A stretch of 64,000 nucleotides of DNA from a virus (taxonomy: Duplodnaviria; Heunggongvirae; Uroviricota; Caudoviricetes). This document shows, one piece after another, positions 25,914 to 42,830 of this stretch. Position numbers and translations under genes: made by a program. Positions within the stretch are counted from its first letter, which is position 1, and each line of letters begins with the position of its first letter. The stretch lies in the IMG/VR virus record IMGVR_UViG_3300033077_000655, one strand, 5' to 3'. Below the pieces are notes generated by a model. That model was not told the origin of the DNA, made no database searches, and saw nothing but the letters and a program-made list of their open reading frames with translations.

Positions 25914-25938
25914 CCAGAAATTACCGTTCTGCTATAAT
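25910..25938 (+). promoter_or_regulatory. promoter TTGACC-N17-TATAAT with its -35 inside a 9-bp inverted repeat
   Basis: GCAGAACGG-ttgaccagaaatta-CCGTTCTGC followed by TATAAT at 25933-25938. Overlaps the upstream stop codon. Confidence 0.55.
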
Positions 25939-26324: not shown

Positions 26325-26704
26325 GGAATCACTATGACCAAACTAGAACAAATCCAAGCACTACTACCTACTGAGCTCTACAAAGACTCAAAGGACTGGC
26401 GTGAAGGCAGTGTAGTAGAACGTGTGGAGTGGTTGCTCTCCATGTACCAAAGTAGCCACGAGGATGTGCTACGCCTGGAACAAGATGTGGATGACCTGAA
26501 GATGGGTCGCTACTATCCAGCAGAAGAGTTTGACAAATGATCCGTAAAAAATTAATCACTGGGCATTACATCATCAAAGCCTCGGCCTACTACGGTAGAA
26601 AGAGCCCCGGATGGATTGCGGTACTGCATGGCTATCCTTGGCACCACACCGGACCCACGGGCAAGAGAGATGCCCAAACCGCAGCTGATCAAGCCAATAA
26701 AACG

Positions 26705-26734
26705 GTTGACCAGAATTGACAAATCGATTATAAT
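26705..26734 (+). promoter_or_regulatory. promoter TTGACC-N18-TATAAT
   Basis: ggTTGACCagaattgac...gatTATAAT; same family as the promoters at 25910 and 39235. Confidence 0.5.
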
Positions 26735-26960: not shown

Positions 26961-27311
26961 TTGGAAAGAAGTAATATGACCTTGGATAGGTTGATTGCTG
27001 GTCAAGGTAACAAGTGTCATTATTGCAATTGCGAAATGAATCGTGAGAAGAAGTCACCACAATTGGCAACTGTTGAGCATCTTGTGGATAAGTGGTCGAG
27101 TCCAAAACACAGGAAAATCGAAGTTGCTTCCAATTTGGTGGCGGCTTGTTTTCAATGTAACAATAGTCGCGGTTCAACACGAAATCGTATTGCCCGCAAC
27201 TATTATAAAATAGTAGTGGCCAAGCGAGGAATCAAACTTGCGGTTGCTTCAACATCAAGTAAGGTTTTATATTCGATGTTTGGTCCAGTGCCACAACATC
27301 TCTTAACGTAA
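26961..27311 (+). CDS. HNH endonuclease
   Basis: CHYCNCEM...VEHLVDKW...CFQCNNSRG (CxxC...H...N...CxxCN). Confidence 0.55.
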   Translation: MERSNMTLDRLIAGQGNKCHYCNCEMNREKKSPQLATVEHLVDKWSSPKHRKIEVASNLVAACFQCNNSRGSTRNRIARNYYKIVVAKRGIKLAVASTSSKVLYSMFGPVPQHLLT

Positions 27312-27323: not shown

Positions 27324-28337
27324 ATGCGTAAGATGGCAACTATTCGACAAATTGATGCACTGAATCCTATTGAGGGTGCAGATGCTATTGAGTGCGCTAC
27401 CATTGGTGGATGGAAGGTAGTGGTAAAGAAGGGTGAGTTTGCGGTAGGCGACCGTGCAGTGTATTGCGAGATTGACTCTTGGATTCCCACCGAGATTGCA
27501 TCATTCCTAAGCAAGGGCAAGGAGCCTCGCGAGTTTGAAGGTATCCGCGGCGAACGTCTGCGTACTGTAAAGCTACGAGGCCAACTGAGCCAAGGTCTGC
27601 TGCTGAATCTTGATGATGTTATTCCACAAACCAATTCATTCGTCGAAGGTGATGATGTATCAGAACTGCTGAACATTGTGAAGTGGGAAATGCCCATGAA
27701 TGCACAACTAGCCGGAATGGCCAAGGGTAATTTTCCTTCTGAGATTCCCAAGACTGACCAAGAACGTGCGCAGAATCTTGTTGGAGAAATCCAGGCTGCT
27801 GCCGAAACAGGCACTGAGTTCGAAGTGACTGAAAAGCTAGAAGGCTCTTCAATGACTGTGTACTTGATTGATGGCGAGTTTGGTGTTTGCTCTCGCAACC
27901 TGGACCTTAAGGAAACTGAAGGCAATACATTTTGGCAAGTGGCACGGCGTGATGACATTGAGGCAAAGATGCGTTCAGTTGTTGGTACTGATTTTGCAAT
28001 TCAAGGCGAATTGATTGGCCCTGGAATTCAAGGCAATATCTACAAACTACGTGAACCAGAGTTCCGTGTGTTTGATATTTACAGCATTACTACAGGTGCT
28101 TATCTGTCTCCTCAAAAGCGCAGAGAACTAATTCGAAATCTTGGTCTACTCCATGTTCCTTTTATCTCTGTTGACAAAGACCTTGGTGTTGGCTCTATTG
28201 ACGAAATTCTTCAATGGGCAGAGGACATATCAATTTTAAATCCTACTGTACAGCGTGAAGGCATCGTGTTCAAGGAAGTGAATGGCGGCATGAGCTTCAA
28301 GGCAATCTCTAACAAGTACCTGCTGGGAGAAAAGTAA
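27324..28337 (+). CDS. ATP-dependent RNA ligase, second type (Rnl2/DraRnl-like)
   Basis: N-terminal OB-like IRQIDALNPIEGADAIECATIGGWKVVVKKGEF; nucleotidyltransferase motif I-like KLEGSS; 337 aa. Confidence 0.5.
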   Translation: MRKMATIRQIDALNPIEGADAIECATIGGWKVVVKKGEFAVGDRAVYCEIDSWIPTEIASFLSKGKEPREFEGIRGERLRTVKLRGQLSQGLLLNLDDVIPQTNSFVEGDDVSELLNIVKWEMPMNAQLAGMAKGNFPSEIPKTDQERAQNLVGEIQAAAETGTEFEVTEKLEGSSMTVYLIDGEFGVCSRNLDLKETEGNTFWQVARRDDIEAKMRSVVGTDFAIQGELIGPGIQGNIYKLREPEFRVFDIYSITTGAYLSPQKRRELIRNLGLLHVPFISVDKDLGVGSIDEILQWAEDISILNPTVQREGIVFKEVNGGMSFKAISNKYLLGEK

Positions 28338-28609
28338 TGTCATTCTACATAAAAGATCTTGACAAGTGGATATCTTATTATCAATGGTTGATATTATTGA
28401 ATGTTGTAACTGTGGCACTGTTTGCTATAGCTGTGGCCTTGATCATTGATAGTGTATTCAATGGCAATTTAAATCAGAGTTTCAAACAACTAACTGATAC
28501 AATCGCACAGGCAATTCACAAAACTGGATCGCATGCTGAACTGATTGACACAGCTGGGTTTGTGGCTGTTTTTGCTTTGAGTGTGTATTGTTTATTTCAA
28601 ATTAAGTAA
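28337..28609 (+). CDS. small transmembrane protein
   Basis: Hydrophobic segment LILLNVVTVALFAIAVALII; ATGA overlap with the upstream stop. Confidence 0.35.
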   Translation: MSFYIKDLDKWISYYQWLILLNVVTVALFAIAVALIIDSVFNGNLNQSFKQLTDTIAQAIHKTGSHAELIDTAGFVAVFALSVYCLFQIK

Positions 28610-28614
28610 TAATT

Positions 28615-28956
28615 ATGTTAAAAAATCTTGTGTTATCTATTACAATATGTTTGGTTGCAAGCACTGCGAATGCACAGTGGAATTTTAATAATTCTGGTAG
28701 TCGTGTATTTGATATGAAAAAAAATAGCACCAACAAAACAACAGTAGAGATACAGTATGTCAAAGCGTCCGAAATTCAAGCAGCCTGTGATGCTCAAAGT
28801 CACAATTTTGGATTGGGGGGGTTTCCTAAAGGTGCATTGGCTTGTACTTGGCAATGGCCAGATCGATGCTTGATAATTTTGCCCGAAAAAGTAGATATGC
28901 GTACAGTAGGGCATGAATTTTTGCATTGTTTGCAAGGCAATTGGCATGCCGAATAA
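28615..28956 (+). CDS. secreted small HExxH zinc-metalloprotease-like protein
   Basis: Signal peptide MLKNLVLSITICLVASTANA; VGHEFLHCLQG (HExxH). Confidence 0.4.
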   Translation: MLKNLVLSITICLVASTANAQWNFNNSGSRVFDMKKNSTNKTTVEIQYVKASEIQAACDAQSHNFGLGGFPKGALACTWQWPDRCLIILPEKVDMRTVGHEFLHCLQGNWHAE

Positions 28957-30294
28957 TGGCAGGAGCAAGATTGAAACAACATTTTGGAGTTGAAGAATGA
29001 TTGAAGATGAAGATCCACAACGAGAAAAGATATTTGAACTTGAACAAGAGATTGTTCGGTTGCGTGGACAGATCACATATCTTCAAGAAGAACTGTCAAG
29101 CTCAGAGGATGAAGTGGCTCGAGTTACAAACCGTTTTGAATATCAAATTGACCGCTTGGAACAAGAACTAGGTGATGCATTGTATAGATCGGAATCCAAA
29201 TGACCGAAGAAGAATACCGAGCCAATATTAAACGACAGGCAGACAACTGCCGAGAGCAAATAGAAACATCAGAACGTTTTCGTGACGAAGCGTTTGGGTT
29301 GTTAGCATTAGCACATTTAAATTTGATGCAACACCTCAAGTATGGATTCAATCCTAAGACTGCACACAGCACCTTGATCAGTGTGGGGCAGCAGTATCCC
29401 TTGCTAAAAGCAAAGATGGACAAATTAGAATCGGAGTTGAACTATGAAACCGACATCAGCTGATGGTGTGGAAGGTGTGTTGATCCAGATAGGCGCTGGT
29501 GTTTACAAGTTCCGAGTGTATGATTCTGAACACAACTTTGTGGATTATGACTTGCATCATAGCGATTTGTGTGTTACAATAACGGATCCAGACGCATTCT
29601 TTTATTGTGAAGATGGTGTCGATCGACTGGATCACAGCCCTCAAACATTAGGACACGAAGAATGAACGAACGAATTCGAGAACTTGCTGAACAGGCTACC
29701 ACTATTGTAGAAATGGTAGGTCCACAAGGTTATGCCAGCAGTTATGCTAACTTTGATAGAGAAAAGTTCGCCGAGCTGATTGTGAAAGAATGTGCTGATA
29801 TTGCCACAAACAGATATCAGAGGCTCATGGATGGCGGAAAAGCAATCAAAGAACATTTTGAAGTTGAAGAATGAACGAACTTACTAGACCAATGCCACCA
29901 AGGGCAAGACTAAGATGTGACGCATGTGGCACTATCGGCGAGGATGGAAAGCACAATAGTATAATTTGCAGGTTCCTACATTGGGTCGACAAACATTTTG
30001 GAGTTGAAGAATGAAAAGCAACCTGGTTCACTCTTACATCACAGGATTTAAGTTTAAAAACATCTACGGTGGTGAGACTGATGACTATTCACGCAGTATC
30101 ATGCAGATAAAATATTTGGATCCTGTGACAGCACAGAAGTTTCCGATGATTAAAAATAAATGGAAACTAAGTGATCATGCTCGATCATACGGATACTTTG
30201 ACACGCTTGAAGAAGCAAAGACAGAAGCACAACGTATTTGGACAGGATGTGGATTTAAGACACCAGAAGAGTGTAGAACAGAAGAGGTTGAAGA

Positions 30295-30633
30295 ATGATT
30301 ACCTTACAACTACTTGAAAAAGATGATACTGTCCAGCCTGAAGATTGGTGTCGGCCATTGAGCATTGTATCAATGAGTGGTGGTCAATCTGACTACTACA
30401 GTTTTTCGAGCCAATACACAGGTGCTCCCGAGAACAATGTTAAATGGGTTAAAGTTAAGTATATTCTAGGCAGGCCATGGCACGGATGCACAGTTAAAGC
30501 AATTGACGACGGCCTTGGAAAGTATGTCAAATACGAGTTCGTTCGAGGGGATATTCCACAGCGTAGTAAGTTAAGTCTCAAGGACTATAAAATTACTGAC
30601 CATACTAAGAAGTTTGTAGGAGTTGAACTATGA
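30295..30633 (+). CDS. hypothetical protein
   Basis: One of a run of small ORFs at 28997-30633 that share start contexts. Confidence 0.35.
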   Translation: MITLQLLEKDDTVQPEDWCRPLSIVSMSGGQSDYYSFSSQYTGAPENNVKWVKVKYILGRPWHGCTVKAIDDGLGKYVKYEFVRGDIPQRSKLSLKDYKITDHTKKFVGVEL

Positions 30634-30742
30634 CATATATTACTAACCGTTACGAATCAGTCAAACTGCCTTGGGAGCCAGGGTTAGTCGAATGGCTGCA
30701 ACAACGTTATCCAATGAGCCTATATCGAATTGTAGAGAAATA

Positions 30743-31207
30743 ATGCCAAAAGTTTATGTATTAGTGGGAGTGCCAGGTTCAGGCAAAAGCACCTGGATAC
30801 GGGATCAAGACTGGGCCCTGGGGCTGACTATAGTTAGTACAGATGCGTTTGTGGAAGACTATGCTAGAGCACAAGGCAAAACTTACAATCAAGTGTTCAA
30901 GGAGTATATGCCTACGGCTGTCAACTTGATGACTGAACAAGTTGTATTTGCACGTGAGCACAATCACAGTATAATTTGGGATCAAACATCAACCACAATC
31001 AAAAGTCGTCTAAAGAAGTTCCGCATGTTGCCCGACTATGAACATGTTGCTGTGGTGTTTCGCACCCCCGAGGCTGAAGAATTGGCTCGTCGATTGTCCG
31101 GCCGAGCAGGAAAGAACATTCCTGATCATGTCATGCATAGCATGATTGCAGGTTGGGAAGAACCTACCGAACAAGAAGGATATGCGGAGATTTGGAATGC
31201 CAGCTGA
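30743..31207 (+). CDS. P-loop kinase (polynucleotide/nucleotide kinase-like)
   Basis: Walker A VLVGVPGSGKST directly after the Met at 30743. The longer upstream ORF start was rejected. Confidence 0.5.
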   Translation: MPKVYVLVGVPGSGKSTWIRDQDWALGLTIVSTDAFVEDYARAQGKTYNQVFKEYMPTAVNLMTEQVVFAREHNHSIIWDQTSTTIKSRLKKFRMLPDYEHVAVVFRTPEAEELARRLSGRAGKNIPDHVMHSMIAGWEEPTEQEGYAEIWNAS

Positions 31208-31610
31208 AATCATGTGGTTTTTAAAACAAAAGGAATAATATGAGCAAACTAAAACAACTAATTGAAGAGATCAGATCTCTACTTGAAGAAGGTTACCGAC
31301 CAGTGACCATTTCTGGTATGTTGGATGTGTCGGTGGACCTGGTGTATCAAGTGGCCGAGTTAACAGAAGTTGACAGCTATTCGTAATAGTGTTATAGTGT
31401 AATTTTTAACAAAGGGGTATTATGATTAAACTTTGGTTTGCGTTTGCTATCCTTGCTGTGTTAATACACGTTGGTATTAGTACATGGAGGAAAATGGACG
31501 GCAAGGAACAATTGGCCTTGACAAAAAGCATAGGTTATAGTATACTTGTATCACTGGCAGCAGTGATGTTGATGACAGTGCTTGTAATTTTATTTTAAGG
31601 AAACACGGAA

Positions 31611-32405
31611 ATGAAACGTATTTTGACTCTCTCTATTTTGGCTGCTGCTGTGTTGGCTGCAGGCTGTACTCGTATTGAAACTGGTGAAGTTGGTGTACGA
31701 GTTGGATTTGATAAACAAGTCCAATCAGGTGAACTGCTTCCCGGTTCTTTTAATCAATCACTAATTGGCGAGGTACTGACGTTCCCAATTAAAGATGTTA
31801 ATGTTCAGTTAAGTGATATGACCCCGGTTGCCAAAGACAACTCGACCATGAAGGACTTTGATGCTGTGGTTGTTTATAATATCAACCCACAACAAGTGTC
31901 TGAGCTGTACTCCACTAAGAACAAGAGTTTCCATGCCGAGTTCAAAGGCGACACATACGTGATGTACAACTACATTGTTCAAAATGCTCGTAATGCTATC
32001 TACAAAGCTGCTCGTAAGCACGAGGCTCTGGATATGGCAGACGCTCGTAGCGACATGGAAAACTTCATCAAGGAAGAAATTGTTCGCAATCTTGCCGAGG
32101 AAAAGCTGGACGGCAGCATCACTATTAGTCAAGTGTTGATTCGTAATATTGTTCCTGCAGATTCAGTTGTGGCCAGTGCCAATGAATTGGTCAAATCCAA
32201 GAACGAACTAAAGCAGAAGGAAATTGAAGTCAAAACTGCTGAAGCTGAAAGCCGTCGTATGGCAGCCCTGGCCAACAACAGCGGCAGCTCAATTGCATTT
32301 ATGCAAGCTCAGGCCATGTTGAATATCTCGGAAGGTATTAAGACAGGCAAGGTTCAGACCATTGTTGTTCCAAGTAACTTCAACGCACTAATGATGTCTA
32401 AGTAA
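31611..32405 (+). CDS. SPFH/band-7 domain lipoprotein
   Basis: Lipobox signal MKRILTLSILAAAVLAAGC; central prohibitin/stomatin-like region; coiled-coil C-terminus. Confidence 0.55.
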   Translation: MKRILTLSILAAAVLAAGCTRIETGEVGVRVGFDKQVQSGELLPGSFNQSLIGEVLTFPIKDVNVQLSDMTPVAKDNSTMKDFDAVVVYNINPQQVSELYSTKNKSFHAEFKGDTYVMYNYIVQNARNAIYKAARKHEALDMADARSDMENFIKEEIVRNLAEEKLDGSITISQVLIRNIVPADSVVASANELVKSKNELKQKEIEVKTAEAESRRMAALANNSGSSIAFMQAQAMLNISEGIKTGKVQTIVVPSNFNALMMSK

Positions 32406-32423
32406 TTACAATAGGAGTCGGAT

Positions 32424-32696
32424 ATGTTTGGATGGCGTAAACGGCAAATTGCCGACCGTGTTGATCGAGACAGCAATAATGCTGCACCATTGCCAGTTGA
32501 TGAAATCCCGGCAGTATCGACTCCTGTTGTTGAGAACAAAGATGCTTTGTACACGGTTGGAGTGAATGAAGTAGGTAACACACAGTTAGTGTTAAAGATC
32601 AATTACGGCACAACTACATTGACTATGGACCCGGGCTCGGTACGTCGATTGATTCGACAGCTGGAAGCTACGTTGGAAAAAGAAGAACAGCGGTAA
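32424..32696 (+). CDS. hypothetical protein
   Basis: ORF with the RBS aggagt. Confidence 0.35.
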   Translation: MFGWRKRQIADRVDRDSNNAAPLPVDEIPAVSTPVVENKDALYTVGVNEVGNTQLVLKINYGTTTLTMDPGSVRRLIRQLEATLEKEEQR

Positions 32697-32919
32697 CTGA
32701 TAAGTAAAAGTATGAAAGTTGACAGCGTCCACACACACAATAACGAAGTTTACAGGCTTCAAGAGATTCGCCGTGTGGATCGCCGTCACCTTGAACGTGT
32801 ACAGGATGAGGCCCGGATCAAACATCAACATGAAATTGACGAGGCTAAACATATAGAAATGAACAGGCGCATGAATCGCAATGGCCAAAACGTAGATCGT
32901 TTGGCGTAACAAATAACCA

Positions 32920-32994
32920 GGGACCTTAGCTCATGTTGGTTAGAGCAGCAGACTCATAATCTGTTGGTGCTGTGTTCGACTCACAGAGGTCCCA
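32920..32994 (+). tRNA. tRNA-Met (anticodon CAT)
   Basis: Perfect acceptor GGGACCT/AGGTCCC; D arm GCTC...GAGC; anticodon loop CTCATAA; T arm CTGTG-TTCGACT-CACAG; CCA encoded. Confidence 0.8.
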
Positions 32995-33216
32995 CCATTT
33001 TTCACAAGGATACATTATGAAAGTACAATTTGCACCTGGAGCATTTGATGATTTTGATGGCACTCAGGAAGAACTGGATGCCTTGATAGCAGAACTTGAA
33101 GAAATGTTCAAATCCATGACTTCCGAAGAACTTGCTGCACAAAGCACGGAAGTTGATTTTGCGGATCTTCCAGATCGTGTGCAAGCCGATCTCCAGGATG
33201 AACCACGTACTTTGCA

Positions 33217-33582
33217 ATGAGAGACGATCCGGACAATAATCTTGAAGAAGATATTGTTGCATGTGAATGGATGGTGAAGAAAGTAATTGACAGCGACACA
33301 TACGCCCAGAACCTCTATGCGTCCATGTGCAATAATACATTCCAAAAAAACGATGTTTGGCCCAGACTTGCAGATCTAACATGGTCATGCAGTTGGCGCT
33401 ATGCTGGTGGGATCATCGCCAATATACGCAAGCAAGGTGACTACATGGACTGGTACTGTAGCGGTATTGGTGGCGCTGTAGGCGCTTATGTGAACGAGAG
33501 TGTGGTCACAGATGAAATCCGTCAAGATTTGTTTTCTATCGGGTGGACAGTAGAACCCTATGATGAGGATATAGAATTTTAG
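33217..33582 (+). CDS. hypothetical protein
   Basis: ORF. Confidence 0.35.
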   Translation: MRDDPDNNLEEDIVACEWMVKKVIDSDTYAQNLYASMCNNTFQKNDVWPRLADLTWSCSWRYAGGIIANIRKQGDYMDWYCSGIGGAVGAYVNESVVTDEIRQDLFSIGWTVEPYDEDIEF

Positions 33583-33617
33583 AAGAATACCAAGAGCTGG
33601 CTGTGTAAGGCGTAAAT

Positions 33618-34289
33618 ATGGGTACGATGCCCATATCATCAAAACCTTTAATTGCCTTGTTCTCTCACCATCCAGAATGCAGCAATCAAAGCTGTAATGG
33701 GGTGGAGCAGAGCCTGGGCAGTCACTATCGTGTACAGAGATTCAACGAAAAAACCCTAAATTCAGACTTGTTGGCACAATCAGCAATGGTTGTGTTTCCG
33801 GGTGGGATTGGTGAGGCTGATCGCTACTACGATTTCTTCCTGCGCAAACGAGCCAACATGATAGCTGATTTTGTAGAATCGGGCGGCAGGTACTTGGGTA
33901 TTTGCATGGGAGCATACTGGGCCGGACATTGGTTTTTTGATATTCTGCAGGACGTAAAGTGCGAACAATACATCAAACGCCCAGGTGCCGATGTACGTAG
34001 AAGTTATGGCACTGTTACTCCAATCAACTGGCAAGGACAACAGCATAACATGTTCTTTTGGGACGGATGTGCCTTGATTGGTGATGAGACCAAATTTACC
34101 ACTGTGGGTCGCTATGCAAATGGTGACCCAATGGCCATAATCCAAAACAGAGTCGGAGTGATTGGTTGCCACTTGGAAAGTACCCGATTATGGTATCAAA
34201 AACCTTGGCAATATCTAGCACCACACTGGCATCACGGGCTGCATCATCAACTGTTGTTGCAATTTACCCACACACTGATGTCAACATAG
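33618..34289 (+). CDS. class-I glutamine amidotransferase-like fold protein (weak)
   Basis: VFPGGIGEAD...LGICMGAYWAG resembles the GATase1 nucleophile-elbow context. Confidence 0.3.
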   Translation: MGTMPISSKPLIALFSHHPECSNQSCNGVEQSLGSHYRVQRFNEKTLNSDLLAQSAMVVFPGGIGEADRYYDFFLRKRANMIADFVESGGRYLGICMGAYWAGHWFFDILQDVKCEQYIKRPGADVRRSYGTVTPINWQGQQHNMFFWDGCALIGDETKFTTVGRYANGDPMAIIQNRVGVIGCHLESTRLWYQKPWQYLAPHWHHGLHHQLLLQFTHTLMST

Positions 34290-34290
34290 C

Positions 34291-34319
34291 TTGACTATAA
34301 TAGTCCTATGCTATATAAT
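34291..34319 (+). promoter_or_regulatory. promoter TTGACT-N17-TATAAT
   Basis: TTGACT at 34291-34296 and TATAAT at 34314-34319, upstream of the 34308 ORF. Confidence 0.45.
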
Positions 34320-34554
34320 AGGGATATGTTTAAAATCTACTATACAGATCCGGTAACCAATTGGTCACACGCACGTGATGCTGACACATTGAACGAAGCA
34401 TTGAAGTATACCGAGGCCTTTCGCAAGTTAGGTATGATCTTTGTCACCGTGGTATCAGAAGATCCTAATCACGTGGGCAAGCCAGGTGTGGATGCAGTGG
34501 TAGATGGCCGGACTCCTGATGGAGTAGCATACACCTGGAACAAGGCCAGTCGTA

Positions 34555-35124
34555 TTGGCCAAACAAAACGGAAATAATATGAAAACTTGGGTAACATCAG
34601 ACTTACACTTTGGGCACAAAAATATCATGAGTTTTTGTCCTAACACCCGTGCGCGGTTTCGCAACGACGTTGCATACATGAACGAACAAATGGTGATCGA
34701 ATGGAATGCCATGATTGCTCCTGAAGATACTGTTTACATCCTAGGCGATGTGGCATTCTTGCCAGCGGCCAAAGCAGCAGAATACATGATGCGTTGCAAT
34801 GGCAACAAGATCCTGATTGAAGGCAATCACGATCGCAAGACCTTGCAGGATAATGGATTCCGTGCATGTTTTCGAGAAGTCCACAAGTATCTGGATGTGC
34901 AGTTCAACGAAATCAAAGTTGTGATGTTTCACTATCCTATTGCAGAATGGGATCAAATGCATCGCGGTGCTGTTCACTTGCACGGTCATTTGCACGGTGG
35001 TGTAAGTGGATTGGAGCGATATCGCGCTGTGGATGTGGGTATGGATTCCACTGGTGCAATTGCCATCTCCATGGACGAAGCAATTCGACTTGGCCTAAAG
35101 GGTGCAATCAAAGGACATCATTAA
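34555..35124 (+). CDS. calcineurin-like metallophosphoesterase
   Basis: DLHFGH, ILGDVAF and GNHD motifs. Confidence 0.7.
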   Translation: MAKQNGNNMKTWVTSDLHFGHKNIMSFCPNTRARFRNDVAYMNEQMVIEWNAMIAPEDTVYILGDVAFLPAAKAAEYMMRCNGNKILIEGNHDRKTLQDNGFRACFREVHKYLDVQFNEIKVVMFHYPIAEWDQMHRGAVHLHGHLHGGVSGLERYRAVDVGMDSTGAIAISMDEAIRLGLKGAIKGHH

Positions 35125-35971
35125 CATGATCACTGATATCATCGGCCGTGAAATTCAAGTGGATAACTTGACCGTATCAGCCTTGTCTTTTTATCAGACA
35201 CAATATGCTAATATAAAAACAGTGCGAGATTATTTTTCTTGGATGGACAACTATGAAAATCTCATAGACATTCTAGGTCCCGATGTATATAAAATTTCTA
35301 AGTTAGCAACCAGCATCACCATTAGAGAATACAAAATAGAGCATGTTGCCACAGTCACATCCCCAACTCTAATAGATCTAGCTAATAAAATCTCCAAAGA
35401 CAACAAGCATATTACTGCTTCAAATAGTTCTTTTGATACCAACTATCTAGGTGGTGAGCATGCTATGCAAAAAGCCGCAGGATTCAATTCGATAACACAC
35501 AGTATAATCAATCCTGTAGCGTATCCTGAATTATTAACCATAGCACAAGCATTTGATCTAGAGCATTGTGCCGTAGCAATACAATATCAACCAACTGCTT
35601 GTATTTTTCCAGCACATGTGGATACTATGTTGACCATGTGGCGGAACATAGCTGCTAGCGATCCTACAGTATTAGATTTGCCATTTGATGTGTCCACAAA
35701 GTCAATAAAAGGAATGACATCTATTAGGTTGTTGTTGGCACTGACTGATTATGTACCCGGGCATGTGTTAGGAGTAGATGATCAATATTGGACCAATTGG
35801 AAAATTGGAGATGCAGTGGTATTTGATAATTGTAATCGAATGCACTACACAGCAAATACTGCATGGGTTCCTAGGGTGTTTTTAAGAATCAGTGGCATGA
35901 TCAATAACTCATCAGACCATTGGATCATCAATAACATCAACCAACACTTGGTCAAGCAGATACAATTATAA
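35102..35971 (+). CDS. hypothetical protein, possible 2OG-Fe(II) oxygenase-like
   Basis: PAHVDT (HxD) and a later His. Weak. Confidence 0.3.
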   Translation: MQSKDIINMITDIIGREIQVDNLTVSALSFYQTQYANIKTVRDYFSWMDNYENLIDILGPDVYKISKLATSITIREYKIEHVATVTSPTLIDLANKISKDNKHITASNSSFDTNYLGGEHAMQKAAGFNSITHSIINPVAYPELLTIAQAFDLEHCAVAIQYQPTACIFPAHVDTMLTMWRNIAASDPTVLDLPFDVSTKSIKGMTSIRLLLALTDYVPGHVLGVDDQYWTNWKIGDAVVFDNCNRMHYTANTAWVPRVFLRISGMINNSSDHWIINNINQHLVKQIQL

Positions 35972-35977
35972 ATTGTC

Positions 35978-37282
35978 ATGGAATTTTTTATAATATTTCT
36001 TGCAATTCCAATAGGACTCTTGGTAGGAATGTTGCCAGCAATAGGAGACAGCGTGATGATGATCATGCTATATCCATTTGTAGCACATTTAGAATTCAAC
36101 ACTTTGATTGCATTTTATGCTACTATGATCACGTGTGGGCAGTTTAGCTCAAGTGTAGTTGGGCTGTGGCTTGGCCTTGCTGGTGATGTCACAGCCATTC
36201 CAGTTCTTAAAGAACGACGAGAAATCATCAACTCCAACTTGTTATGGACTGCATTGTATAGGACCGGGCAGGCTAGTGCTATTGCCACGTTAGCATCTGT
36301 AGCAATGCTGAGCTTGTTAATTCAGTTTGGTACTGAATTTCGATATTTTCTTCGCACAGATGTATTTTTTGTCATTATAGTTATGGTAGCAGTTTCTGCA
36401 CTGGCTTGGTCTGGAAATAAATTCAAAACAAATTTACTATTGTGCTTGATTGGTCTAGTAGGTAGCTTGATTGGATACAATCAGTTTTTAGGTAAATCTA
36501 TCCTGACCATGGGGGTAGAATTTTTGGTCAATGGCTTGCCTTTCCTTCCTATACTGTTAGGCATGTATGCCATCCCTATGTTGTTTGCTGCCATGGCAGA
36601 TATGTCCAATGCAAGTCCAGTGGATCACACCAAAATTGATACTAGTCAACCTATACAATTAGTACCTGCAGCAGTGATGGCCCGAGGTACTATCATTGGA
36701 TTTTTAACAGGGCTATTGCCGTTGATTGGAGTAACAGTAAGTGCTGCTACTGCACATTTTGTTGAATCCAAAATCAAATCTAGCACAGCACTGACAAGAA
36801 TAAGTTCAGCAGAAGCAGCTGACAATGCGGCTGTGATATCTGTGCTGTTTCCATTATTGGTATTTGGTGTGGCAATACAACCAAGTGAGGCCATAGTGGT
36901 CAATTTGCTGACTGATCGCGGATGGTCAATTAACCAACTCAAAGCAGACACTTATTTGAAAATGGGCGTGGGTATATCAGTTGGAGTGGTGGCATGTCTT
37001 GCATTTTGTGTGCATTATATTGTTCAGATGATCAACTGGTTTACCAGATATTACCAATATGTATTTTATTTTATTTTTGCATTGATAGCATGTGATGTTT
37101 GGTATTTGGGCATGGACTCAGACCGATCAGTCTTTTACATGATTGTTTTTGCAATTTCCACGGTGGTGGGATATTTTTTGTACAAGAAAAAAATTGATCC
37201 AGTTCCAATGATTTTTGTATGGATGCTGGGTCCGTATTTTTGGCCGACTGCATATAGACTTTTACAGCTATATGTTTTATAA
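35978..37282 (+). CDS. polytopic membrane protein, TctA-family-like transporter subunit
   Basis: At least 10 hydrophobic segments; N-terminal GLLVGMLPAIGDS resembles the TctA GxLPGxG signature. Confidence 0.5.
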   Translation: MEFFIIFLAIPIGLLVGMLPAIGDSVMMIMLYPFVAHLEFNTLIAFYATMITCGQFSSSVVGLWLGLAGDVTAIPVLKERREIINSNLLWTALYRTGQASAIATLASVAMLSLLIQFGTEFRYFLRTDVFFVIIVMVAVSALAWSGNKFKTNLLLCLIGLVGSLIGYNQFLGKSILTMGVEFLVNGLPFLPILLGMYAIPMLFAAMADMSNASPVDHTKIDTSQPIQLVPAAVMARGTIIGFLTGLLPLIGVTVSAATAHFVESKIKSSTALTRISSAEAADNAAVISVLFPLLVFGVAIQPSEAIVVNLLTDRGWSINQLKADTYLKMGVGISVGVVACLAFCVHYIVQMINWFTRYYQYVFYFIFALIACDVWYLGMDSDRSVFYMIVFAISTVVGYFLYKKKIDPVPMIFVWMLGPYFWPTAYRLLQLYVL

Positions 37283-37302
37283 TTAACTAGAAAGGATACT
37301 CT

Positions 37303-38166
37303 ATGATTAAAAAACTATTAACCGTCGTGACTGCAATGGTTATCGCTGCCGGTGCGTCCGCAGCTGACAAAACATTTACATTTTTAATTCCTTGGGGTGG
37401 CGGTTCAAATGATCAAAATATTGCCGAACTACTAACCCCCGGCCTTAAACAACTGGGATGGGATACATCGATTGTTTTGTACAATGGCAATTGTGCAGCT
37501 ATGGCACAGGATCTTAAAAATACCAAAAAACCAACAATAGCAGTGTGGTCTAATAGAGACCATTTGTTGCCTCTTGATCACGAATGCTATCTTGTGCCAC
37601 CTACTGCACAAAATATGATATCAATTTGGTATTATGCACCCGATTATCTTTGTGCTGTTGGTAAGACTGCACCTGATGCTATTTTTACCACGCCCGGTAC
37701 ATATCGTATTAGTGTACAGTCATTCCCGAGCACTTTGAATTGGGTCACTGATGCTATCAAATCTGTCAGCCCCGGCACAGTCAAAACTGTAATCTACAGC
37801 GGTAGTGGAGCGCAGATCCGTGCCGCTGCTGCACAAGAAACTGAGTATGTGTTAGGAACGTCAGGCAAGGTCATTGAACGCAATGGTCAAGCTGTATGTA
37901 CTCACAATACCGGCCCGACTGAGTCACTGGGCACACGCCCACTGGGAGAGATCAACCAAAGTGTAATGAATTATTACATGATGGTTTATGCTTCTTCCAA
38001 AAATATTCCTGCTAATCTTCAAACTGAACTACGTTCTGATATGGCTCGTTTGTTGCAAACCCAACTGCTACAAGATTATTTTAAGACCAGACAGTTTATA
38101 ACAAAAATGTCTACAGCATCAACCGACGAACAAGTTAACTTTTTGGTGAAATCAATTAAAAAATAA
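37303..38166 (+). CDS. periplasmic solute-binding protein, TctC/Bug-family-like
   Basis: Signal peptide MIKKLLTVVTAMVIAAGASA; FLIPWGGGSNDQNIAELLTPGLKQLG resembles the TctC PxxGGxxD...LG motif. Confidence 0.5.
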   Translation: MIKKLLTVVTAMVIAAGASAADKTFTFLIPWGGGSNDQNIAELLTPGLKQLGWDTSIVLYNGNCAAMAQDLKNTKKPTIAVWSNRDHLLPLDHECYLVPPTAQNMISIWYYAPDYLCAVGKTAPDAIFTTPGTYRISVQSFPSTLNWVTDAIKSVSPGTVKTVIYSGSGAQIRAAAAQETEYVLGTSGKVIERNGQAVCTHNTGPTESLGTRPLGEINQSVMNYYMMVYASSKNIPANLQTELRSDMARLLQTQLLQDYFKTRQFITKMSTASTDEQVNFLVKSIKK

Positions 38167-39218
38167 TGCACTACGTCAATGATACAAAAATTGTATATTC
38201 TCAATGGGATATCAACTACACTACTGATTATAAGTTTGTGTTAGGCAACGGGTTTGACAATTACAAATTCTCAATCAATCGGGCTATTAGTTTTGAACAT
38301 GCAGTTAGAGATCATCTGATTCAACTGAGAGATCAACATTCGTATTTGCGTTTTTGGTTTTCGGGTGGACCAGACTCGCGTATAGTTCTTGATACTGCCT
38401 ACAAATACAATATTGCGTTTGACGAAATTGTAATGATTCGATATACCCCGACTGATCCACTGGTTGTGTTTTGTAATTTGGCCGAAGTTGATCGATGTGC
38501 TATTCCAATTGCACACAACTACAAAGAAAAATTTGTGTCAACTAAGTTAACAGTAATCAATTGCGACAACAATTATTTTAATTGGTTTTACACTGCCCCT
38601 GAGTGGCACAAGAAGTTCATGCATTTTTGCTATGTAGAGCCGGGTATGATGAAAGGCATCTATGAATACAATCGATGTTATCCCATACTGGATGATGTAA
38701 ATCCGTTTGATTTATTTGGATTTCAACAGCCTACCATATGGTTTGACACAGATCAACAATGTTGGAAATTTTTATACATTGATAGAACATTTAATCAAAT
38801 CATGGATACTCCAGAATCAATTTGCACTGGTTCAGGATCTGCTGTTCTAAATGCATATCTGTCAGAACTTATACCAAAGTTTGAGTCACTGGGATACTTT
38901 CCAAAAAAATTCAAAGAGACTATCACTGGTAGAGAACAAAAAAATATGTTGTCTTTGTTTCAAAATTTAACATATCCTGCCGGGGCAATTCTTATGCCCA
39001 AGAAATCCCATCAACTACAAAAAACATATCCCACTGCTGATAAATTTTGGTATGCAACCGGTGATTTTTCTGACGAACTACACACATTGATATTTTATGG
39101 ACTAGATCAACGTCCAAGTTCTTTTGAAAACTGGGCGTTTAAATCCAACTGGGATGAAATTTTAATCAATCTCCGCAGAGGTGGAATTTTATCTCAAGAG
39201 TTTATATTTCAAACTTGA
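38166..39218 (+). CDS. PP-loop ATP pyrophosphatase-like protein (QueC/asparagine-synthase-like?)
   Basis: LRFWFSGGPDSRIVLD (SGGxDS PP-loop). Confidence 0.4.
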   Translation: MHYVNDTKIVYSQWDINYTTDYKFVLGNGFDNYKFSINRAISFEHAVRDHLIQLRDQHSYLRFWFSGGPDSRIVLDTAYKYNIAFDEIVMIRYTPTDPLVVFCNLAEVDRCAIPIAHNYKEKFVSTKLTVINCDNNYFNWFYTAPEWHKKFMHFCYVEPGMMKGIYEYNRCYPILDDVNPFDLFGFQQPTIWFDTDQQCWKFLYIDRTFNQIMDTPESICTGSGSAVLNAYLSELIPKFESLGYFPKKFKETITGREQKNMLSLFQNLTYPAGAILMPKKSHQLQKTYPTADKFWYATGDFSDELHTLIFYGLDQRPSSFENWAFKSNWDEILINLRRGGILSQEFIFQT

Positions 39219-39234
39219 TTGTAATGCAGCCCGG

Positions 39235-39263
39235 TTGACCAGAATTGCCCGTTCTGCTATAAT
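39235..39263 (+). promoter_or_regulatory. promoter TTGACC-N17-TATAAT (GTTGACCAGAATTGCCCGTTCTGCTATAAT family)
   Basis: TTGACC at 39235-39240 and TATAAT at 39258-39263. Confidence 0.55.
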
Positions 39264-39482
39264 ATACACATAAACAGAGATAGGAGCATATGATGACTGA
39301 AGACGACATCCGCAAAGTTTCCGCAGAACACGGGCTAACATCCAAGAGTTCAGCTGATGAAATCCGTCAAGTGTTTCCCAACCTGCCCGAACACGGTGCA
39401 TTTCCGGAGTTTCGTATCCTGCGATTGATCGACGGTATTCCTGGATTCCGGTTGGATCATTCGTTTCGTTAAGGAGTCAATT

Positions 39483-39986
39483 ATGACCATGGTAGAAAGA
39501 GCCCGAGTATTTGCCACCGCTGCCCACGCTGCGGTTGGACAAGTGCGTAAGTATACATTTGAGCCGTACATTATGCATCCTGCCGAAGTTGCAGGCATTG
39601 TTGCAACTGTGCCACATACAGATGTGATGTTGGCTGCTGCTTGGTTGCACGACACAGTGGAAGACACTGGTGTTAGCATTGTGGATATCCAAAAAGAATT
39701 TGGCAATGAGGTTGCATCCTTAGTCAGCTGGTTGACTGATGTCAGTGAGCCAGAACAAGGCAACAGGGCTGTTCGCAAAGCCATAGACCGTGAGCATACT
39801 GCAATGGCACCTGCCGCTGCACAAACTGTGAAGTTGGCTGACTTGATCGCCAACAGTCGCAGCATCTTGGCACACGACCCTGCATTTGCAAAAGTGTATT
39901 TGGAAGAAAAGCGCATGTTGTTGGAAGTATTAACCCGCGGTGACGCCACATTGATGGTTCAAGCCCGACAGATTGTAGGAGCATAA
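39483..39986 (+). CDS. HD-domain phosphohydrolase, SpoT/Mesh1-like (p)ppGpp hydrolase candidate
   Basis: RKYTFEPYIMHPAEVAGIV...AAWLHDTVEDT matches the SpoT N-terminal HD motif. Confidence 0.65.
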   Translation: MTMVERARVFATAAHAAVGQVRKYTFEPYIMHPAEVAGIVATVPHTDVMLAAAWLHDTVEDTGVSIVDIQKEFGNEVASLVSWLTDVSEPEQGNRAVRKAIDREHTAMAPAAAQTVKLADLIANSRSILAHDPAFAKVYLEEKRMLLEVLTRGDATLMVQARQIVGA

Positions 39987-40365
39987 AATGTCCGACAAAG
40001 AATTGTCTGTTCTGGAAAAAGCCCAGCGTGAGGTAGAGTTGTTGGAGTGGTCCATGAGCTCTGTCAAAATCGCTGGGCAGGCACACCAACGCATGTACCA
40101 CACTGCTCACATTCCGCTAAATTATCGATCTGCCATTGATGCACTAGAGACACAACTGTGCGGAGCACAGGCCTTGCTGAAACGAATTGAAACTTTAGTA
40201 CGCTAACATGAAACCTGAAAAGTTTGCTGAGTTGTTAGACGAGATTGAAGAATTCATTGGTGAACACAATCTCAGCAATCCACACTATTTATTTGATGAA
40301 GAAATTATCAAATATTTCTCACATTACAAAAAGAAGCATGTTAAACGAGCATTAGAGGAATTAAG

Positions 40366-41256
40366 ATGAACAAAGAACTATTGAAAGAGTTTGTGCTAGC
40401 CAACCCACGGTTGGTTAGTATGAAGCCTGCTGGCGATGGTATCTTTGTGCTCAAGTACAAGAAGGCTGTGTTCTACGACAACTTGTGGAATGACTTTTTG
40501 GAAGAATGTCGCGGTACAATTGTTGACATTGACTTTAATGTGGTGTCACGTCCATTCACAAAGATCTACAACTACGGTGTAGAAGCCAAGGCTCCTGTGC
40601 TGAGTGAAGATACTGTGGTAGAATGCTTTCGTAAGGTCAATGGCTTTATGGTTGCAGTGACTTGGCACGACGGTCGACTGCTGGTATCCACAACTGGATC
40701 CACATCTGGTGACTTTGTAGACATGGCCAACTCCTTCATTGACCGGCGTCGCGGCACCTTTGAACGGTATGTGAGTGGCTTCCCTGACTTGACTTTTATG
40801 TTTGAATGTGTGCATGCAAATGATCCACACATCATTGTAGAAAAGCCAGGACTGTACTTGCTGGGCTATCGTAAAAAGACTTGGGAAAGCCGTAGCGAAA
40901 ACGATGGACTCAGCCTGTATCACCAATATGCATTGTCAGACCACGTGGTAGAATGGAAGCGTTGTACTCTGGGCGAACTAGTACAGGAAGTGAAAACTGT
41001 TCGGCATGAAGGTTTTGTAGTATATGCTAACGACTATACTACATCCTTCAAGATCAAAAGCCCATACTACCTAACTGCAAAGTGGGTGGCACGTAACCCT
41101 CGCACCGACAAACTGATGACACAAGAATTCCGAGAACAATTGGATGAAGAGTATTACCCGCTGCTGGAGCACATCCGTGCTAACATAGAGGCTTATACTG
41201 TTATGGATGAACAAGCACGCCTGGCCTGGGTGCGTGAATATTTGGAGATGGTATGA
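40366..41256 (+). CDS. rnlA: RNA ligase 1 (T4 RnlA-like)
   Basis: LEECRGTIV...SRPFTKIYN aligns with T4 RnlA ALECRGIMF...SRPMEKFFN; KVNGFM matches motif I KxDG; EGFVVY matches motif IV. Confidence 0.7.
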   Translation: MNKELLKEFVLANPRLVSMKPAGDGIFVLKYKKAVFYDNLWNDFLEECRGTIVDIDFNVVSRPFTKIYNYGVEAKAPVLSEDTVVECFRKVNGFMVAVTWHDGRLLVSTTGSTSGDFVDMANSFIDRRRGTFERYVSGFPDLTFMFECVHANDPHIIVEKPGLYLLGYRKKTWESRSENDGLSLYHQYALSDHVVEWKRCTLGELVQEVKTVRHEGFVVYANDYTTSFKIKSPYYLTAKWVARNPRTDKLMTQEFREQLDEEYYPLLEHIRANIEAYTVMDEQARLAWVREYLEMV

Positions 41257-41468
41257 ACGAAGAATTTGACCGATTTGAAGAACACATGGCCAAGGACGAA
41301 AGTCACTTGCCCGTGAGTGAACAAAGTTTGATCTTTCGTTTGCGCAAGCGAGCAGAGATCCGTCGGCAGATCACTTCACGTAAAAGTGTGCAAGAAGGTG
41401 CGCCTGACCGTATTGCTGACCTCTTGGAAGAAGCTGCTGCTGCACTAGAAGCAGCCGAATCAAGATAA
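41253..41468 (+). CDS. hypothetical small protein
   Basis: ORF with overlapping start. Confidence 0.3.
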   Translation: MNEEFDRFEEHMAKDESHLPVSEQSLIFRLRKRAEIRRQITSRKSVQEGAPDRIADLLEEAAAALEAAESR

Positions 41469-41984: not shown

Positions 41985-42743
41985 ATGTCCGTATTCTTAG
42001 ACTCAGTGATAGAGTTCTACATCACCAATCAATGCAACCTAGCCTGCACCAACTGCAATAGGTTCAATGATCACGATTTCCGTGGTCACTACTATTGGGA
42101 GGATTCTGCACCTGCTGTCACAGCATGGAGTCAACGTATCAATGCATCAATGATAGTGATCATTGGCGGTGAACCCAGCTTGCATCCTGGGTTAGAAACT
42201 TGGGTGATGAATCTTCGCAGATTATGGCCGGACACCACAATCATGATTCAGAGTAATGGCACTAATGCAAAAATAGCAAAAGATCTCGACTCTTACAGCA
42301 AGTACCATGTGGGATGGGGTATAAGTGTACATCGTCCTGAGATGCGACCTGCATTAGAACGACAATGGGGCAACCTTATTGACAACACAGAATTTACCCC
42401 GGCTGCAATTATTCCGCAAGGTGATGCATTTGTTGTTCATCAGAGCAATCCGATAACTGCATTCAAAGCCTGCACCATGCGGCATAGTCACACTGTATTC
42501 AAAGGAAAACTGTACAAGTGTCCTGTGATGGCTGTGCTGCCAGAGTTCCGCACACAGCAATCAGTAATCATGGATACCAGGCAAGAACAGTTGTTGGCTC
42601 AGTATCAACCATTGAGTGCGGACTGTACTGAGCAACAGTTGACGGACTTTGTAGACACAAGAAATCAACCCATTGATCAATGTGAATTTTGCCCTGGTGA
42701 ATTTGATTTCCAGCCAGTGGTATTTCACAAAAGAAAAAAATAA
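41985..42743 (+). CDS. radical SAM protein (single Cx3Cx2C cluster)
   Basis: FYITNQCNLACTNCNRF...IIGGEPSLHPGL. Confidence 0.5.
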   Translation: MSVFLDSVIEFYITNQCNLACTNCNRFNDHDFRGHYYWEDSAPAVTAWSQRINASMIVIIGGEPSLHPGLETWVMNLRRLWPDTTIMIQSNGTNAKIAKDLDSYSKYHVGWGISVHRPEMRPALERQWGNLIDNTEFTPAAIIPQGDAFVVHQSNPITAFKACTMRHSHTVFKGKLYKCPVMAVLPEFRTQQSVIMDTRQEQLLAQYQPLSADCTEQQLTDFVDTRNQPIDQCEFCPGEFDFQPVVFHKRKK

Positions 42744-42819: not shown

Positions 42820-42830
42820 CCAAAATTTAT

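Follow-up and report, generated by a model that had tools for sequence, protein, structure and literature searches.

The RNA repair system of phage T4, in which Pnkp and Rnl1, together with Rnl2, are set against the anticodon nuclease PrrC, combines a 5'-kinase, a 3'-end phosphoesterase and a ligase of the Rnl1 fold, and to our knowledge it is still the only phage RNA-repair pathway that has been tested by experiment. The same logic can be recognised in a 64,000-nucleotide stretch of DNA (hereafter the window) from a tailed phage (Caudoviricetes; IMG/VR record IMGVR_UViG_3300033077_000655). Five open reading frames (ORFs) on its plus strand were found to encode an Rnl5-type RNA ligase (positions 27324-28337), a stand-alone P-loop kinase (30743-31207), a minimal metallophosphoesterase (MPP; 34579-35124), a single-domain Rel/SpoT-type HD hydrolase (39483-39986) and a short RNA ligase of the Rnl1/Trl1 fold (40366-41256). 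As in T4, a second ligase, here a predicted nick-sealing one, is encoded in the genome and the genes need not adjoin. The family membership of the five proteins, which lies far beyond chance, their intact catalytic motifs and the conserved linkage of their genes to one another and to tRNA arrays are directly established. We estimate a probability of about 65% that the kinase, the MPP and the 40366 ligase make up a functional RNA heal-and-seal module split over three proteins, the substrates and activities of all five proteins being predicted ones. The RNA repair toolkit proposed in the original prediction gains support, as the kinase, MPP and Rnl1-like ligase form a conserved, shuffled neighbourhood and the other identities considered for three of the proteins (a dNMP kinase, an Mre11-like DNA-repair protein and a DNA ligase) do not hold.

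Compared with T4, the components are built differently. The kinase and the phosphoesterase are separate proteins here, and the phosphoesterase is an MPP whereas that of T4 is a DxDxT/HAD domain. The second ligase is an Rnl5 where T4 has Rnl2, and the 40366 ligase, which has the adenylyltransferase domain and most essential residues in common with T4 Rnl1, is 78 amino acids (aa) shorter, lacks the C-domain, and carries KxNG as motif I and a threonine in place of lysine in motif Ia. The bacterial Pnkp/Hen1 and Pnkp1-Rnl-Hen1 systems of Clostridium thermocellum and Capnocytophaga gingivalis likewise heal ends with a kinase and an MPP, and the ligase of the Pnkp1 system is also a separate protein; their kinase and MPP are fused, whereas those in the window are separate, and no Hen1 methyltransferase was seen here. 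The ligase domain of fungal Trl1 (Rnl6) has the motif I KxNG in common with the 40366 ligase, and Trl1 is further marked by its own C-domain, fused kinase and 2H cyclic-phosphodiesterase domains and a 2'-PO4 requirement.

Phage precedents are also available. Protein p110 of Rhodothermus phage RM378, to whose kinase domain the window kinase is 31% identical, was found in a domain scan to consist of an N-terminal HD domain and AAA_33, in agreement with the published RM378 enzyme, a characterised 5'-kinase/3'-phosphatase (PMC1997131). RM378, which also has an Rnl1-type ligase, offers a phage precedent for the pairing of a polynucleotide kinase with a 3'-phosphatase of the HD type; there the HD (subfamily PF01966) and the kinase form one polypeptide, whereas the window has a separate Rel/SpoT-type HD_4 protein and an MPP in addition. 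A kinase domain of the same type was found at the C-terminus of CP21_070 of a Campylobacter phage, the HD scan having covered RM378 p110 alone. Fusion evidence was confined to this RM378/CP21 type of protein, apart from a hint of a kinase-ligase fusion in phrog_8238. According to a 2021 jumbo-phage review that cites Burroughs and Aravind 2016, ligases of the Rnl1 and Rnl2 families occur alongside polynucleotide kinases and phosphoesterases in jumbo phages rich in tRNAs, and Pseudomonas phage Adele carries a kinase without a phosphatase domain beside an RNA ligase, as well as a small alarmone hydrolase (PMC12846349). The general concept has already been published from comparative genomics, and the present combination of components is an uncharacterised variant that will not surprise the specialist; our literature search found no experimental work on the kinase/MPP/ligase triad.

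The linkage of the genes was analysed in 80 viral loci carrying a relative of the 40366 ligase (up to 10 kb per side) and four other loci. All 101 window ORFs were searched against these 84 loci, which were collapsed to 44 clusters by merging near-duplicates. The MPP (68 loci), a 71-aa ORF termed o71 (65), the kinase (62) and an 89-aa ORF termed o89 (38) were the top partners, far above the others. Seven further ORFs occurred in 15-31 loci, including o70 (31), o116 (25), o77 (17), HD (16), o194 (16) and o121 (15), and all other window ORFs in 9 or fewer. Of the 44 clusters, 36 had the MPP, which lay no more than 3 kb from the ligase in 30 and no more than 1 kb away in 21; 27 had the kinase, at a distance of up to 3 kb from the ligase in 19, and the gap between MPP and kinase was at most 100 nucleotides in 12 of 25 clusters. 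The genes occur in several orders (MPP-LIG-o71-KIN, MPP-KIN-LIG(-o71), KIN-MPP-LIG, LIG-o71-MPP-KIN, HD-KIN-LIG(-o71), KIN-MPP-HD-LIG and RNL5-MPP-KIN-LIG), and the stop and start codons of neighbouring module genes often overlap in the relatives. A shuffled order with adjacency kept is predicted by selection for co-expression and not by inherited synteny alone. Dozens of related phages have the kinase, the MPP and one ligase next to each other, so these three probably work together.

The linkage extends to tRNA genes and to cultured phages of other lineages. Of 40 dereplicated metagenomic loci, 21 have tRNA genes no more than 10 kb from the ligase, and in three of the loci (L026, L029 and L066) the MPP/kinase/ligase block is nested inside a tRNA array. 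Salmonella phage PVP-SE1 (rV5-like) has the MPP gp102, an HNH insertion, the ligase gp105, a small ORF and the AAA_33 'ATPase' gp107, while in Ralstonia phage RSP15 the AAA_33 protein ORF098 overlaps the ligase ORF097 (mislabelled) and is followed by the MPP ORF094, with seven tRNAs just upstream. In Acidovorax phage ACP17 a stretch of 3.5 kb contains the ligase, an AAA_33 protein and a pair of overlapping HD and MPP genes, and in Sinorhizobium phage phiN3 the HD, kinase and MPP genes fall inside 4.5 kb. The kinases of rV5, RSP15 and ACP17 are more divergent AAA_33 proteins, as if an analogue had taken over, and this would again indicate a need for the kinase activity. In the T4-like Caulobacter phage Cr30 the full-length RnlA gene is overlapped by an orthologue of the window kinase (39% identical), with an Rnl2-type ligase and another MPP no more than 6 kb away. 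We considered the second Cr30 ligase as an Rnl5, and it proved to be Rnl2-like (KIHGTN), with a neighbouring MPP of a different type, so the Cr30 set is analogous and not orthologous. Among the cultured-phage records, the numbers of MPP and ligase matches almost coincide in several genera, with 209 and 199 for Escherichia, 181 and 178 for Pseudomonas, 39 and 36 for Klebsiella and 24 and 24 for Acinetobacter. Genes predicted to provide all three heal-and-seal activities are present and linked across genomes.

The short ligase (40366-41256, 296 aa) matches phrog_562, 'RNA ligase and tail fiber attachment catalyst', which is the PHROG of T4 gp63/RnlA (E 1.1e-50), and it matches T4 Rnl1 in the PDB with E 2.2e-5 as a single sequence and 3.5e-12 as a family profile. 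The alignment to T4 RnlA that had been reported earlier, with its named motifs, was reproduced (EECRG at 46-50, SRP at 61-63 and KVNG at 90-93), and the adenylyltransferase domain has the Rnl1-type N-terminal sub-module. Its active-site residues are R49, K66, K90-V-N-G93 (motif I), E147, E215-G216 and K229-x-K231. Nine of these positions (R49, K66, K90, G93, E147, E215, G216, K229 and K231) are invariant across the family and correspond, as counted on the alignment, to T4 R54, K75, K99, G102, E159, E227, G228, K240 and K242; we take the essential residues of T4 Rnl1, as defined by mutagenesis, to be R54, K75, K99, G102, K119, E159, E227, G228, K240 and K242. As all catalytic residues are invariant, an enzymatic role of this ligase appears to be under selection. 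The family is large, with 2,561 homologues in the protein collection and 682 matching cultured-phage records.

This protein is Rnl1-like, yet it seems to fall outside the Rnl1 clade, because RNA-ligase clades are defined by their C-terminal appendages, the C-domain of T4 giving anticodon-loop specificity (PMC6379707), and a C-domain of the T4 type is absent. No match to PF20819, the C-domain family of T4 Rnl1, was found by Pfam, and an hhalign alignment to the full-length RnlA of phage Cr30 (PF20819 at 264-374) stops at residue 239, past which there is a conserved helical tail of 57 residues (DEEYYPL...EQxRL). The position of T4 D101 is taken by N92, giving the motif KxNG, which is motif I of the tRNA ligase Trl1, where the Asn reaches the catalytic metal via water (PMC6379707). 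The protein scores 34.8 bits against the cut-off of 242 of the curated model TIGR02308, and no Pfam match was obtained at E <= 0.01, while many relatives 60-93% identical to it have a precomputed PF09511 match. Its structure model (pLDDT 85) gave scores of about 15-16 with Rnl3, 12.9 with NgrRnl (Rnl5), 11.5-12.6 with Rnl2 and 11 or less with DNA ligases.

The kinase (30743-31207, 154 aa) belongs to the polynucleotide-kinase clade, whose members phosphorylate 5'-OH ends. Its ATG start at 30743 is confirmed by homologues of 153-154 aa. The Walker-A kinase expected at this position is borne out by the motif GVPGSGKST and a Pfam AAA_33 match (E 2.5e-18), and the further motifs S32-x-D34, where D34 equals D35 of T4 Pnk, and a lid with R116/R117...R121...K124 were identified. 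This kinase agrees with T4 Pnk in its P-loop, its catalytic Asp and the Arg residues of its lid; among 43 family members GVPGSGKST, D34 and R117/R121 (R122/R126 in the T4 lid) are invariant. When the family profile was compared with the PDB, the best solved match was Pnkp1 (2.6e-11), followed by PSTK (1.2e-10), CthPnk (3.8e-10), mammalian PNKP (7e-10) and T4 Pnk (2.9e-9). Shikimate kinase reached 1.3e-5 in the same search and adenylate and UMP-CMP kinases only E > 0.04, so that kinases of polynucleotide and tRNA ends rank at the top and a dNMP kinase is not indicated. A fused 3'-phosphatase domain, as in the T4, Cth, RM378 and mammalian Pnkp, is absent, and the 120 best homologues are all stand-alone proteins of 153-171 aa.

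For the MPP (34579-35124, 181 aa) we propose a role as the end-healing enzyme for 2',3'-cyclic phosphates or 3'-phosphates. The original prediction of a calcineurin-like phosphoesterase at 34555 was right as to the family (phrog_547, E 9e-52; PF00149, E 5e-6) and wrong as to the start, since 34555 is the TTG of a mechanically called ORF and the real start is the ATG at 34579; on an identical contig the gene is called from that ATG, and its homologues are 181-182 aa long. The dinuclear-site motifs are complete (SDLHFGH, GD, GNHD, H118 and GHLHG), the invariant residues being D8-x-H10, G56-D57, G82-N83-H84-D85, H118 and G136-H137-x-H139. The AlphaFold model (pLDDT 88) scored 9.0 with lambda phosphatase, 8.2-9.2 with Mre11/SbcD and 7.5 with the CthPnkp phosphatase; from this comparison the protein is not an Mre11-like DNA-repair protein. 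Its nearest structure has no assigned function and the next neighbours are the small-molecule phosphodiesterases LpxH, MJ0936 and YfcE. A weak NCBIfam match was found to PdeM, a ligase-associated DNA-damage-response enzyme (E 8e-4). No domain fusions of the 'Rosetta stone' kind were found among the 120 best homologues, which are all stand-alone. The MPP is of the aq_1665 type, a widespread family with a structure available since 2004.

Rnl5 ligases such as NgrRnl of Naegleria and DraRnl of Deinococcus seal nicks in duplexes in which the strand with the 3'-OH is RNA. The 27324-28337 ORF (337 aa) encodes a full-length member of this type, with the same domain order and motifs, and its sequence identifies it as an RNA ligase that is predicted to seal nicks. 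The RNA-ligase-like OB domain and KxxG motif noted earlier correspond to an N-terminal PF21189 domain (residues 4-95, E 2.8e-29) and to K171-L-E-G174 in KLEGSS (nucleotides 27834-27851), K171 being the lysine nucleophile, within a C-terminal nucleotidyltransferase domain (PF09414 RNA_ligase, residues 165-327, E 1.9e-29). The protein passes the curated NCBIfam equivalog model TIGR02306 RNA_lig_DRB0094 for Rnl5 RNA ligases (191.6 bits against a cut-off of 151.15), which argues that it is not a DNA ligase, and aligns with NgrRnl (PDB 5cot) over residues 1-334 (E 4.6e-88). The aligned motifs are DQER, KLxGSS, QGE (QGELIG), REG.VFK (REGIVFK) and FKAIS. It differs from DraRnl and NgrRnl in being phage-encoded and in having KLEG as motif I where theirs is KLDG, with Glu at the position of NgrRnl D172. 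Among the relatives it was found in 9 of the 84 loci.

Small alarmone hydrolases of the Rel/SpoT type remove the 3'-pyrophosphate from alarmones. The 167-aa product of 39483-39986 is of this type and the SpoT-like assignment made earlier stands, with a match to PF13328 HD_4 (E 1.7e-15) and to Rel/SpoT hydrolase domains in the PDB (about 2e-15; Mesh1, 7e-12). It contains LHDTVED (55-61; the HDxxED signature) and KLADLIAN (117-124) and no synthetase domain. Like Mesh1, ATfaRel, PaSAH and phage small alarmone hydrolases it consists of one HD_4 domain with HDxxED; unlike them, it shares an apparent operon with an RNA ligase, and in relatives it adjoins kinase and MPP genes. The gene was found in 13 of the 44 clusters, within 3 kb of the ligase in 11, and directly adjoins the ligase in L005, L025 and phage ACP17. 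Small alarmone hydrolases also restore tRNA that has been pyrophosphorylated at the CCA end by anti-phage toxSAS toxins, which include CapRel (bioRxiv 2021.04.30.441581; PMC11782079). The window protein may repair tRNA 3' ends instead of, or besides, manipulating alarmones.

In the pathway that we propose, a host ribonuclease would cut RNA, most likely tRNA, leaving a 2',3'-cyclic phosphate and a 5'-OH. The MPP would take off the cyclic or 3' phosphate; among metallophosphoesterases, the CthPnkp phosphatase and lambda phosphatase are examples of enzymes that open 2',3'-cyclic phosphates and remove them (PMC2190708). The kinase would add a phosphate to the 5'-OH, and the ligase, adenylylated on Lys90, would then join the ends in the way that ligases of the Rnl1/Trl1 fold join healed ends through a lysyl-AMP intermediate (PMC6379707). 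Rnl5 could seal nicks within duplex RNA, in a role like that of Rnl2 beside Rnl1 in T4, and the HD hydrolase, probably co-transcribed with the ligase, could strip the 3'-pyrophosphate from (p)ppGpp or (p)ppApp alarmones, from the CCA ends of tRNA that toxSAS toxins have modified, or from both. Together with the tRNA bank of the phage, the set would keep translation going under host attack on tRNA. The HD hydrolase and Rnl5 as accessory members of such a tRNA damage-reversal kit are each plausible at somewhat below even odds. A wider reading is doubtful as a whole: in it the short ligases (about 2,500 relatives) would form a distinct RNA-ligase clade with an Rnl1/Trl1 core, KxNG, the motif Ia Thr and their own tail, carry out three-protein tRNA repair with a PNK-type kinase and an aq_1665-type MPP, and be joined by the HD protein as a tRNA 3'-end de-pyrophosphorylase against toxSAS of the CapRel/FaRel2 type.

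Several observations weigh against the heal-and-seal proposal. The kinase lacks the acceptor-binding Arg of T4 Pnk (R38 of D-x-x-R, which contacts the 3'-phosphate), having V37 there and no conserved basic residue, and it is also without the acceptor-binding Arg of C. thermocellum Pnk. In the model comparison the MPP was not structurally close to the CthPnkp phosphatase domain or to lambda phosphatase and stands outside that subfamily, and its family occurs in many phages without a ligase of the 40366 type, among them many that infect Gram-positive hosts, for example Staphylococcus, Listeria and Enterococcus phages. The 40366 ligase is without the C-domain that confers tRNA specificity on T4 Rnl1, and the motif Ia position of T4 K119 (Trl1 K169) is an invariant Thr110 in its family. 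The genes are spread across 10 kb in this window with unrelated genes between them. Most of the 44 clusters come from a single broad group of uncultured phages whose ligases share 57-66% identity with that of the window, so the linkage counts are inflated by shared ancestry and inherited synteny and are not fully independent. Rnl5 is present in just 5 of the 44 clusters, within 3 kb of the ligase in 2, so that its linkage to the module is weak, and HD hydrolases of this kind are generally taken to be alarmone hydrolases. An anticodon nuclease as the opponent is presumed, no host anticodon nuclease being known for the phage.

We consider it unlikely that the five genes are unrelated accessory genes that happen to share an early or auxiliary region. 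The HD protein would then lower host (p)ppGpp or (p)ppApp, the MPP would degrade small phosphoesters such as cyclic-nucleotide defence signals, the kinase would act on a small molecule and the ligases would have separate tasks, including a T4 gp63-like attachment of tail fibres by the Rnl1-like protein. The intervening genes in the window, the small-molecule phosphodiesterases among the structural neighbours of the MPP, the phages that have the MPP without the ligase, the published annotation of phage HD_4 proteins as alarmone hydrolases and the breadth of the AAA_33 family all agree with this explanation. Against it stand an adjacency that outlasts changes of order, often with overlapping codons, in many relatives and distant cultured phages, and a kinase profile that ranks polynucleotide kinases at least four orders of magnitude ahead of others, and the invariant catalytic residues of the ligase speak for an enzymatic role under selection.

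The two remaining explanations keep the enzymes together and change their substrate. That the module repairs or processes the phage's own RNAs, such as tRNA halves left by intron removal or by cleavage with a phage nuclease, or circularises RNA, would fit its position beside or inside phage tRNA arrays, the homing endonuclease genes common around the loci and the JGI label 'ATP-dependent RNA circularization protein' of one homologue of the 40366 ligase (P0080). No intron-bearing tRNA is supported, as two odd ARAGORN calls are unbacked by Rfam, and the counter-defence of T4 against PrrC is the sole experimentally established role of a phage kinase/phosphatase/Rnl1 set (PMC2610378; PMC6379707); we regard this explanation as slightly less probable than the preceding one. 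Healing of DNA ends during repair or replication by the kinase, the MPP and a ligase appears highly improbable. T4 Pnkp and other polynucleotide kinases do act on DNA too, mammalian PNKP, which serves in DNA repair, is one of the profile matches, the weak PdeM match of the MPP points in the same direction and PVP-SE1 has a DNA ligase gene 1.5 kb downstream; against this, the module is linked to tRNA arrays and the MPP is not Mre11/SbcD-like. The three-protein RNA heal-and-seal module is the reading that we prefer.

Within the window the five genes are scattered and do not form a compact cluster. The 14-kb span holds many unrelated genes, including those for an SPFH protein, a TctA transporter and a GATase-like protein, a tRNA-Met and small ORFs. 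An extended sigma70-like element, GGTTGACCAGAATTG-N10-TATAAT, was found on the plus strand ahead of the HNH-Rnl5 block (26704-26734; 11 of 12 consensus positions), and a second copy, which contains the near-consensus sigma70-like promoter at 39235-39263, lies on the same strand at 39233-39263 ahead of the packed block o60-HD-o72-o53-ligase-o71. Four copies occur in the window (25532-25562, 25908-25938, 26704-26734 and 39233-39263), all intergenic and on the plus strand, against 0 expected from 100 shuffles, and the element is likely to be a phage-specific promoter class. The significance is limited to the extended element, since sigma70-like sites in total number 36 against 39 expected. The junctions within the packed block are +10, +1, +1, -4 and -4 nucleotides; as a promoter copy precedes this tight run, HD and the 40366 ligase are probably a single transcription unit, and Rnl5 may be co-regulated with them because the same rare element precedes both blocks.

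Two small ORFs accompany the module genes. The o71 ORF (41253-41468, plus strand, 71 aa) overlaps the stop codon of the ligase (ATGA) and is a conserved neighbour, present in 31 of the 44 clusters and within 100 nucleotides of the ligase in 16. Its basic/acidic core is near-invariant, LRKRAEIRRQI..RKSV.EG.PDRIADLLEEAA (LRKRAEIRRQ...DRIADLLEEAA), and keeps an identity of 80-96% against about 60% in the ligase, so it is better conserved than its enzyme neighbours. The family comprises 1487 representative clusters, and its homologues in cultured phages are found away from ligases. No Pfam or PHROG family and no PDB relative was found for o71, and it was rejected as a split-off T4 Rnl1 C-domain (hhalign probability 0.08%). 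The ORFs o70 and o53 were also rejected as ligase-marking paralogues, as they show no significant similarity and o70 adjoins the ligase in 3 loci only. The o89 ORF (34308-34577, plus strand, 89 aa) ends 1 nucleotide ahead of the MPP start and is a recurrent MPP neighbour (16 of the 44 clusters); it gave no Pfam or PHROG match, and its membership of the module is uncertain.

Other genes in and around the span were also annotated. An HNH endonuclease ORF (26961-27311) stops 12 nucleotides short of the Rnl5 gene and a GIY-YIG-like ORF (25563-25913) has counterparts in 25 of the related loci; there seems to be a concentration of homing endonucleases near these genes. The SPFH/Band-7 lipoprotein gene (31611-32405; PF01145, E 1.3e-16) lies 400 nucleotides past the kinase, and SPFH genes were also observed beside the ligase in Pseudomonas phage 16Q and near kinase and MPP in phage phiN3. 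A 223-aa ORF (33618-34289) has the glutamine-amidotransferase-like N-terminal domain of biotin-protein ligase (PF09825, E 5e-14) and no PHROG match. Between the MPP and the HD/ligase block, the region 35978-38166 encodes a full-length TctA tricarboxylate-transporter membrane subunit (PF01970, E 1.5e-39) and then a 287-aa ORF that matches no family and whose N-terminus resembles a signal peptide. Three small ORFs share at their starts a junction sequence of about 30 nucleotides, AACATTTTGGAGTTGAAGAATGA (copies at 28974-29005, 29848-29879 and 29988-30019), which may be a duplicated ribosome-binding/start cassette or a relic of small-gene duplication. No RlaP, CCA-adding enzyme, 2H, KptA or RtcB was found among the 20 large flanking ORFs scanned, not all of the smaller ones having been included.

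The large tRNA set mentioned in the original prediction is present, with 36 ARAGORN calls, 34 of them backed by Rfam, and one further tRNA from Rfam, which makes 35 Rfam hits. The tRNA array (42745-55444, plus strand) starts 1.3 kb past the ligase block with only a radical-SAM gene in between, and a single tRNA-Met (32920-32997) lies within the 27324-41256 span. ARAGORN and Rfam disagree at 50402-50493 and 48234-48320, and at 48692-48764. A 92-nucleotide ARAGORN 'tRNA-Ile(tat)' beside a tRNA-Arg(tct) has no Rfam support and is repeated in L005, L010, L026, L053 and L076, where it mostly adjoins tRNA-Arg(tct); an ARAGORN 'tRNA-Cys(aca)' is also without Rfam support, and one Rfam tRNA is absent from the ARAGORN calls. 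Five radical-SAM ORFs were found (16459-18465, 20082-20945, 41985-42743, 48784-50310 and 50508-52154), three of them with B12-binding domains and two situated inside the tRNA array, and the regions 11060-13184 and 55585-61988 encode sugar epimerases/dehydratases, glycosyltransferases, methyltransferases and a transketolase-like ORF. All of these genes taken together may make up a large modification or glycan pathway.

The window genes are all on the plus strand, with a G+C content of about 42%. The family-B DNA polymerase shares 46-49% identity with its counterparts in the jumbo phages Phosso and Atu_ph07, and a search of the 15-kb region at the DNA level against the cultured-phage collection gave one tRNA-sized match and nothing more, so that the genome is absent from that collection. 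Identical or near-identical contigs are present in public metagenome assemblies, the 40366 ligase lying on a contig of up to 125.6 kb. A transfer-messenger RNA (tmRNA) of betaproteobacterial type was found at 62007-62386 (Rfam RF01850, 125 bits; tag peptide ANDSVYSLAA), and a related locus (L014, 2870-3247) also carries a tmRNA. Taken together, this describes an uncultured phage that is related to T4 and is probably a jumbo phage, and the type of the tmRNA suggests that its host may be a betaproteobacterium. A 77-aa ORF (62695-62928) belongs to the RNA polymerase omega/Rpb6 family (PF01192, E 1.3e-12) and is kept in 17 related loci; an RpoZ-like protein encoded by a phage is unusual.

Defences that target tRNA are common, among them PrrC, RloC, PARIS, retron-PtuAB, OLD, Cas12a3 and the tRNA-pyrophosphorylating toxSAS. 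The module described here is built differently from that of T4: its proteins are split, an MPP replaces the HAD phosphatase, and the ligase lacks the tRNA-specificity domain of T4. It is frequent among uncultured jumbo phages and occurs also in tractable coliphages and Salmonella phages (rV5 and PVP-SE1), which makes it directly testable. Were it to work otherwise, its strongly conserved linkage would still call for an explanation. If the three proteins do repair RNA, they would help to explain how some phages escape tRNase defences, would give a function to a widespread MPP family, the first for the aq_1665 MPP family, and would add a further ligase variant, possibly useful as a reagent. If the wider reading with the HD protein is true as well, the island would reverse several different kinds of tRNA damage and would be widespread, including in rV5-like coliphages.

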